Assembly (NCBI RefSeq): GCF_006345805.1
Contig: NC_043004.1
Span: 25,048,001-25,112,000, forward strand
DNA from: Octopus sinensis
Lineage: Eukaryota
Length of the DNA: 64,000 nucleotides
Direction: 5' to 3'
Both the position numbers and the translations under genes were made by a program. Shown here piece by piece: positions 49,241 to 50,511 of this stretch (the stretch's first letter is position 1; each line of letters starts with the position of its first letter). The notes below the pieces were generated by a model. It ran no database searches, was not told the DNA's origin, and saw only the letters and a list, made by a program, of their open reading frames with translations.

Positions 49241-50511
49241 AGAAATATTAAAATTACTAAGTCTCTCTAAAAGAGAACAGCGGCAGCGTTCCCGGAAAAT
49301 AATAGTTATCGCCATACTAATATGGCATTCTTATAAAAATAAGAATAAAGCTGTCCGCTTATTAGCTCCATGAGGCCATCGCCTTAAGTTAGCTATTTGA
49401 TACACAAACTGTATCCATATAACCTTCGAACAAGGAGGTCAGTCGCTCCACACTACTTGACCGGCAGCTACAGACGCGTTTCGGGGTATTGCCCCTTTTC
49501 AATGCAGCGTAGCCAGCAGTAGGTGTCGCTTCCGACAATCTCTGTTCGATGGTTTTATTTACCTAGTTTCGGTGGAATACATCCACTTGTTTCAATAATA
49601 GAAATATTAAAATTACTAAGTCTCTCTAAAAGAGAACAGCGGCAGCGTTCCCGGAAAATAATAGTTATCGCGATACTAATATGGCATTCTTATAAAATAA
49701 AGAATAAAGCTGTCCGCTTATTAGCTCCATGAGGCCATCGCCTTAAGTTAGCTATTTGATATACAAACTGTATCCATATAACCTTCGAACAAGGGAGGTC
49801 AGTCGCTCCACACTACTTGACCGGCAGCTACAGACGCGTTTCGGGGTATTGCCCCTTTTCATGCAGCGTAGCCAGCCAGTAGGTCGCTTCCGAAAATCTC
49901 TGTTCGATGGTTTTATTTACCTAGTTTCGGTGGAATACATCCACTTGTTTCAATAATAGAAATATTAAAATTACTAAGTCTCTCTAAAAGAGAACAGCGG
50001 CAGCGTTCGGAAAATAATACGCCATACTAATACAGTTTGTGTATCAAATAGCTAACTTAAGGCGATGGCCTCATGGAGCTAATAAGCGGACAGCTTTATT
50101 CTTATTTTTATAAGAATGCCATATTAGTATTAGTATGGCGATAACTATTATTTTCCGGGAACGCTGCCGCTGTTCTCTTTTAGAGAGACTTAGTAATTTT
50201 AATATTTCTATTATTGAAAACAAGTGGATGTATTCCACCGAAACTAGGTAAATAAAACCATCGAACAGAGATTGTCGGAAGCGACACCTACTGGCTGGCT
50301 ACGCTGCATTGAAAAGGGGCAATACCCCGAAACGCGTCTGTAGCTGCCGGTCAAGTAGTGTGGAGCGACTGACCTCCCTTGTTCGAAGGTTATATGGATA
50401 CAGTTTGTGTATCAAATAGCTAACTTAAGGCGATGGCCTCATGGAGCTAATAAGCGGACAGCTTTATTCTTATTTTTATAAGAATGCCATATTAGTATGG
50501 CGATAACTATT
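49241..50511. mobile_element. Retrozyme-like array: about 2.2 direct units plus about 1.3 inverted units of ~360 bp, in (TA)n
   Basis: Units start at 49241, 49600 and 49958; inversion from 50031; one HHR motif per complete unit; no credible ORF. Confidence 0.85.
50303..50344 (+). ncRNA. Minimal type-I hammerhead with U3-A8 core; copies at 49467-49508(-) and 49827-49867(-, 1-nt deletion)
   Basis: gctgca-TTGAAAA-gggg caata cccc-GAAA-cgcg-TC-tgtagc; palindromic ACGCGT stem III; GUC triplet. Confidence 0.8.

Follow-up and report, generated by a model that had tools for sequence, protein, structure and literature searches.

A young hammerhead retrozyme array in Octopus sinensis, probably inserted by a Penelope-like enzyme, from a family that hosts a LINE at a fixed site

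The array at 49241-50512 of the window, by which we mean the whole stretch of 64,000 nucleotides of the Octopus sinensis genome analysed here, is probably a recent insertion of a non-LTR retrozyme, placed into a (TA)n tract by the enzyme of a Penelope-like element (PLE), and belongs to a family some of whose units host a LINE at one fixed site. What moves animal retrozymes is an open question: in the text of a 2020 review that bears on it, their repeats are described as showing no motif that indicates a partner enzyme (PMC7761336). The octopus family offers an answer through the footprint of its insertions.

Two head-to-tail units on the minus strand (49241-49599 and 49600-49957) are 97.2% identical, the second carrying several private indels and substitutions. 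They are followed by a third, 5'-truncated minus-strand unit (49958-50032) which stops at a head-to-head junction, where an inverted arm of 1.3 units on the plus strand begins (50030-50512; 97-99% identity to the units). The (TA)n target tract, to which no strand is assigned, lies on the left at 49006-49240 (also given as to 49241) and on the right at 50514-50558. These coordinates and identities were re-measured and agree with the original prediction of tandem units, a partial unit and an inverted arm within (TA)n. No long ORF is present inside the array, and an Rfam scan of the window returned nothing at gathering score. Because the same architecture is repeated at dozens of loci, it is not a local assembly artefact; the window's own inversion junction is bridged by no contig among those listed. 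The surroundings hold other repeats: a long imperfect, MITE-like inverted repeat just left of the array (48600-49000), a 128-nt part of which recurs 3 kb away with 98% identity (51752-51879), and two tandems of two copies each, at 2831-3116 (141-nt copies) and at 46635-47005 (186-nt copies), the latter presumably SINE-like.

Of the three hammerheads in the array, the first (49467-49508, minus strand) is intact by sequence, descriptor and fold: it is of type I with a U3-A8 core, a helix I of 6 bp, a helix II of 4 bp and a palindromic loop 3, and its predicted cut falls at 49473/49472. The third (50303-50344, plus strand) is also intact, with a predicted cut after 50338. In the second (49827-49867, minus strand) one core U is absent. 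Thus the U3-A8 motif that had been assigned to each full unit stands for two of the three motifs and fails in unit 2, where the UUGA box is one U short; the spacing claimed for the two minus-strand motifs was recovered, their cut sites being 360 nt apart. Among the 129 motif copies that were counted, the unit 2 deletion turns up once, about as often as three other homopolymer deletions do (2/153, 6/140 and 3/131), so either an error of assembly or a mutation private to this copy may explain it; no contig among those compared with the window covers it. Release of a monomer from the window copy would require both minus-strand motifs, one of which is perhaps broken.

When the host genome (2.7 Gb, microsatellite-rich) was searched with unit 1, there were 1,246 candidates, and 40 of them were scored. 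Full units of the family, 362 nt long, protein-less and of about 42% GC (150 of 354 alignment columns), are 96-100% identical, which bears out the proposal of a young insertion. Counted genome-wide, as had been suggested as a check, the exact ribozyme motif of this family (family A) occurs 1,215 times and its reversed control 0 times, so its occurrence is not due to chance. Relaxing the pattern so as to take in a sister family, B, raises the count to 1,532, and the controls again give 0. Family B is 81% identical and has helix II and the loop-3 palindrome altered in compensating pairs, and two distant families, C and E, align along the unit and have the 3' tail in common. Among 67 distinct motifs, collected with no constraint on positions 3 and 8, these two are U-A in 56, C-G in 10, U-G in 1 and mismatched in none, and loop 3 is palindromic in 57; the proportions are biased, many loci having been chosen by a U3-A8 pattern, but the C3-G8 motifs came from flanks. 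Lower variation within the ribozyme was disregarded as evidence because many loci were selected by an intact motif. The cut-to-cut monomer has a predicted fold with z-scores of -5.14 (linear) and -4.97 (circular) and 62% of its nucleotides paired. Tandem hammerhead units, their dispersal, covariation of the ribozyme across families and the stability of this predicted fold all uphold the assignment to the retrozymes. A second, distantly related family of hammerhead retrozymes also has a copy in the window, at 13132-13321 on the minus strand (nhmmer E 3e-13), with a C3-C4 core variant, a 6-nt palindromic loop 3 and (TA)n flanks. A 277-aa open frame beside one family-B copy (L139:1-831, minus strand) matches the Pfam entry ETX_MTX2 below threshold (E 0.00075; 19.8 bits against a cut-off of 22).

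The unit is covered by contigs of three runs presumed to be RNA, and contigs of run X15 cover it deeply. In run X3, two contigs that overlap by 30 nt at both ends close a 362-nt loop over the cut site, which was not counted as evidence since tandem DNA or uncut multimers would look alike. About half of the family words also occur in runs labelled with other organisms. The copies carry no A>G excess of the kind that A-to-I editing would leave (A>G/T>C of 8/12 in family A and 19/21 in family B).

We then examined where insertions of the family end. The census drew on loci from two best-score searches (30 each), on C1 pattern matches taken in order and on refetches, with 17 loci removed as refetches or apparent assembly duplicates and three lying at an edge. 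In inverted insertions, the outer ends are 3' ends in the sense of the ribozyme and fall at either of two positions some 60 nt from each other, a "long" end, which includes the tail, and a "short" end, which does not. The 78 inverted clusters comprise 64 with a long and a short end, 3 with two long ends, none with two short ends and 11 with an end elsewhere; among the 67 with both outer ends at the fixed sites, 64 thus pair long with short. The window copy obeys this rule, its low end (49241) being long, with the tail of about 60 nt running into (TA)n, and its high end (50512) short. Inner junctions and the 5' ends of insertions are variable. AT-alternating DNA adjoins 147 of 193 3' ends as against 5 of 37 5' ends. 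Target-site duplications (TSDs) of 10-14 bp are seen at non-TA sites (for example L086, L091, L129, L137 and L166), while the (TA)n of the window hides any TSD there. Subfamily sites show that both arms of an insertion were copied from one template: in family A, discordance is 11/1,013 between arms and 51/1,584 within one arm, compared to 40,353/116,783 between loci, and family B gives the same picture with weaker contrast (35/493, 54/465 and 10,179/62,049, respectively). Copying of one arm from the other by fold-back was considered and rejected, as it would not produce the arm lengths seen in L003, L007 and L160. Three pairs of loci have identical junctions and flanks at different places (L007/L013, L014/L015 and L134/L135) and are likely assembly duplicates or segmental duplications.

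These features match what is described for PLEs, whose insertions include a 5'-truncated copy in inverted orientation, carry a tail at just one of their ends (PMC8557442) and have two internal start sites for reverse transcription (PMC11167929). The PLE tail is usually 30-40 nt and that of the octopus family, at about 60 nt, is longer; it corresponds to the two internal start sites. The paired fixed 3' ends, the tail on one arm, the single template for both arms and the 10-14-bp TSDs together support the earlier reading of PLE-type mobilisation, and the phase of the array ends, which had been proposed as a check, resolves into the two 3' sites described above. On a single template, each strand uses a different one of the two start sites, where the sections of the in vitro PLE work that deal with them describe no strand difference (PMC11167929). 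Hundreds of near-identical insertions thus constrain a PLE mechanism that is still unsolved.

We next searched for the partner PLE. A search for the GIY-YIG domain gave 147 matches, from which 30 loci and 20 longer stretches were taken, and a second PLE family was then added. Two young families (L061-L067 and L291-L295) were studied in depth. Both have intact RT-GIY-YIG ORFs of about 780 aa preceded by a further long open frame, and both have a variant hammerhead 75-120 nt before the end that joins (TA)n, the tail being optional. In this incomplete census, none of the PLE loci compared with the unit (L031-L080 and L291-L320) shares sequence with it or has a matching pseudo-LTR (pLTR). An nhmmer match beside L068, at first taken as a link between PLE and unit, was withdrawn, as it stems from an adjacent retrozyme that only 1 of 30 loci has. 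Conversely, retrozyme loci checked by tblastn contain no PLE ORF between units, the only ORFs there being those of the LINE and of ORF1-only relatives described below. The repeat works like a non-LTR retrozyme and, by the features tested, is one, and not an autonomous PLE. The window also has a weak match to the PLE GIY-YIG domain at 57807-58169 (E 1e-5).

A mechanism can be proposed from these observations. Arrays would be transcribed by read-through, and the hammerheads, acting as dimers through the palindromic loop 3, would cleave the transcripts into RNA of one or several units, which a host ligase may circularise, as can be argued by analogy with the retrozymes of PMC7229834. The RT-endonuclease of a PLE would then cut both strands of an AT tract. 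The same RNA would serve as template for two cDNAs, one starting from its distal site and one from its proximal site, and these 5'-truncated cDNAs would be joined head to head.

Three other accounts of the arrays have to be weighed against this one. The most serious, possible in our view but clearly the less favoured, is that the hammerhead plays no part in spread: a linear read-through RNA is copied by the PLE enzyme, tandems arise by DNA duplication and no circle is involved. The ends of the element are 175-235 nt away from the predicted cut instead of coinciding with it, and in work on the anole PLE in vitro ribozyme cleavage is dispensable, mutants still inserting (PMC11167929). PLE-type hammerheads cleave poorly in vitro, and eight of nine dimers of Xenopus retrozymes showed no cleavage. 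Some arrays also look expanded at the DNA level: L160 has four inner units with three variants that are absent from its end units, which favours duplication, while the periods of 2-4 units in L098, L179 and L180 fit multimeric templates or later duplication alike. However, compensatory changes preserve both the ribozyme and the dimer palindrome across families, the cut-to-cut monomer folds far better than shuffles, and the mussel units, which are of similar size (350-390 bp; PMC7229834), yield abundant circles. It is improbable that the unit is the solo pLTR of an autonomous PLE and the arrays truncated PLE insertions. All insertion hallmarks are PLE-like, and Xenopus retrozymes resemble the pLTRs of PLEs, yet L179 contains 10 or more perfect head-to-tail units without an ORF, the ORFs found between units by tblastn are those of the LINE and its ORF1-only relatives, and neither of the two PLE families examined in depth gave a pLTR match. 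Finally, many private indels, and frameshifts in most LINE copies, could be read as signs of an assembly artefact or an ordinary minisatellite, an explanation to which we give almost no credence, as dozens of loci whose junctions differ obey the same architectural rules and the contigs of run X15 cover the unit deeply. At the level of the family, the artefact reading is excluded.

Insertion by a PLE enzyme is the reading that we prefer. U3-A8 cores, retrozymes and a PLE link have all been published already. Like the metazoan non-LTR retrozymes of Cervera and de la Pena (2020, PMC7229834), the octopus family consists of non-coding, low-GC tandem units (150-450 bp there) with one type I hammerhead each, a self-paired predicted circle and a TSD of more than 4 bp. 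Unlike them, as they are presented in that source, it has a U3-A8 core, forms dispersed short arrays with a head-to-head inversion, has two fixed 3' ends and a resident LINE, and is known here from DNA. The classical retrozyme hammerhead has a C3-G8 core with contacts between loops 1 and 2, contacts which the mussel retrozymes lack. With the PLE-derived retrozymes of Li, Clavereau and Pollet (2026, bioRxiv 10.64898/2026.07.22.740005) it shares its non-autonomous nature and PLE machinery as mover; the evidence presented there is co-occurrence and pLTR similarity in vertebrates, whereas here it is an insertion signature, with no pLTR homology found, and the asymmetry of the ends is a sharper footprint than the published co-occurrence. 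With the EN+ PLEs, it has in common the inverted 5'-truncated copy, the single tail, the AT-rich or (TA)n target and two start sites for reverse transcription (Craig 2021, PMC8557442; Arkhipova 2013, PMC3846280; Frangieh 2024, PMC11167929), as well as the palindromic loop 3, which permits a dimeric helix III in metazoan motifs, and the U3-A8 core, reported in Schistosoma PLEs (Cervera 2014, PMC4209133). It differs from them in having no ORF, a tail of about 60 nt and canonical helices I (6 bp) and II (4 bp) in place of the minimal motif.

Some units of family A also serve as the host of a young LINE. In L143, 5,341 nt (about 5.3 kb) of LINE lie inside a unit, in the sense of the ribozyme. The insertion site is about 40 nt before the hammerhead core, and the 17-bp TSD ends about 10 nt before helix I; in the window, the corresponding empty sites are at 49517-49533 (minus strand, unit 1) and 50277-50293 (plus strand). 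The frames are intact in L247, where ORF1 has a zinc knuckle and ORF2 an apurinic-like endonuclease (APE), a reverse transcriptase (RT) and a zinc finger. The closest solved relative of ORF2 is human L1 ORF2p (E 1e-66). The label Tx1 type is our own assumption from the domain layout, the homologs found having carried no names. The LINE 3' end is at the site in all of the best 30 of 40 scored matches, and of the 30 best 5' ends 29 are there (28 by the exact rule and one with a mismatch). Exact words of the LINE 3' end, which are unbiased by score, are followed by the target in 35 of 65 cases, the sister LINE family included; among the first 30 of these words, copies of at least 91% identity are at the target in 16 of 18 cases, leaving 2 off-target, and those of the sister family (about 83%) in 0 of 12. 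These fractions (35/65, 16/18 and 30/30 of the best) all lie above the 20% of flanks in one target that Kojima uses to define a target-specific LINE. Genome-wide, the site is filled by a full-length LINE next to 35 of the 1,215 motifs, or in about 3% of units in the family. In 20 long stretches, all LINEs with a visible 5' end are full length except L251; L268, at first read as a 5'-truncated composite, was withdrawn as it adjoins an N gap. The letters of the TSD match the local variant of the target. Most LINE copies have frameshifts, which suggests residual assembly error.

Relatives of this LINE that consist of ORF1 only, with an ORF1 30% identical to that of the resident LINE, occupy other retrozyme families. 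A hammerhead core is located 25-40 nt past their 3' end in 22 of 30 cases, compared to 1.7% of control windows, and 21 of these 22 cores are at +35 to +40 nt. Most have TSD-like repeats that match their own host. A tree built from the last 700 nt (26 rows, 4 short rows omitted, host labels assigned manually) intermixes the three divergent host families, B, C and E, and a tree test rejects a single clade (p-AU 1e-60 and 5e-6), and with it a single origin. The interleaved hosts and the own-host repeats thus point to repeated insertion at a homologous position. The LINE target sequence differs greatly between host families; it is the position that is conserved and not the sequence. At four places (L141:2492-6942, L158, L219 and L225), two different ORF1-only elements stand in tandem with a partial unit or a TSD between them.

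With slightly less than even confidence, we propose a three-tier parasite: these elements would belong to an L1/Tx1-type lineage specialised on retrozymes, which inserts a set distance ahead of the ribozyme in several divergent families, so that the host hammerheads excise the LINE RNA at both ends, the flanking target ensures full-length re-insertion and the PLE enzyme on which the retrozyme relies also carries modules of LINE plus unit to new (TA)n sites. The LINE would most likely insert at the retrozyme site by its own endonuclease, and the flanking host hammerheads would supply both ends of its RNA. It is unlikely, we think, that the LINE has no targeting of its own and that one or a few chance insertions in a master unit were multiplied as PLE cargo. 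This would account for the nearly universal full length of the copies and for the absence of the sister LINE from the site. It would also suit an array of about 29 kb on C3, in which five modules of LINE plus unit are arranged head to head between one short and one long end with a probable TSD of about 15 bp, and in which the LINEs are separated from one another by 1.8 changes/kb and from outside copies by 4.8. But the five C3 copies match different outside loci, and the haplotypes of the LINEs do not track those of their units (Mantel rho 0.21, p 0.12). Two further points argue against transport as cargo alone: LINE-TSD-LINE tandems at two loci, and the ORF1-only relatives, which take up the same position in each of three families while the hosts interleave on their tree. 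Two origins suit the C3 array: a PLE may have copied a composite, multimeric RNA, or LINE RNA with one unit attached may have inserted serially. Riding along may add to targeting instead of replacing it.

If specialisation on retrozymes is the correct reading, the LINE is a natural, full-length and site-specific integrator of the APE type with RNA ends obtained from borrowed ribozymes. It resembles the Tx1-clade LINEs Tx1, Keno, Kibi, Koshi and Tx1-Mar in being a two-ORF APE LINE at one position in another repeat and in forming tandem copies around a TSD (Kojima 2015, PMC4494074), and differs from them, as described in that source, in that its target is a ribozyme-bearing retrozyme and its Tx1 placement putative. 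With R2 in 28S rDNA it shares site specificity and, if the proposed mechanism holds, the way in which ribozyme self-cleavage frees its RNA from a co-transcript. In R2 the ribozyme is HDV-like, lies at the 5' end and is encoded by the element itself (PMC3774820), whereas the resident LINE would borrow host hammerheads at both ends. A LINE that targets retrozymes was not found in the literature searched, outside which lie Repbase, most subscription journals and the supplements of papers; the resident LINE may be catalogued already, and published supplements may list motifs from this genome. The sister LINE (83%; L262, L267, L276 and L287-L289) has 3' flanks that are partly alike (L267/L276 and L288/L289) and perhaps has another preferred target. 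The window itself contains the 3' portion of a further, older LINE of the L1/Tx1 type (33502-34848, plus strand). Its protein is 46% identical to the resident ORF2, and its end lies in a tract of (CTAC)n/(TATC)n and not within a retrozyme.
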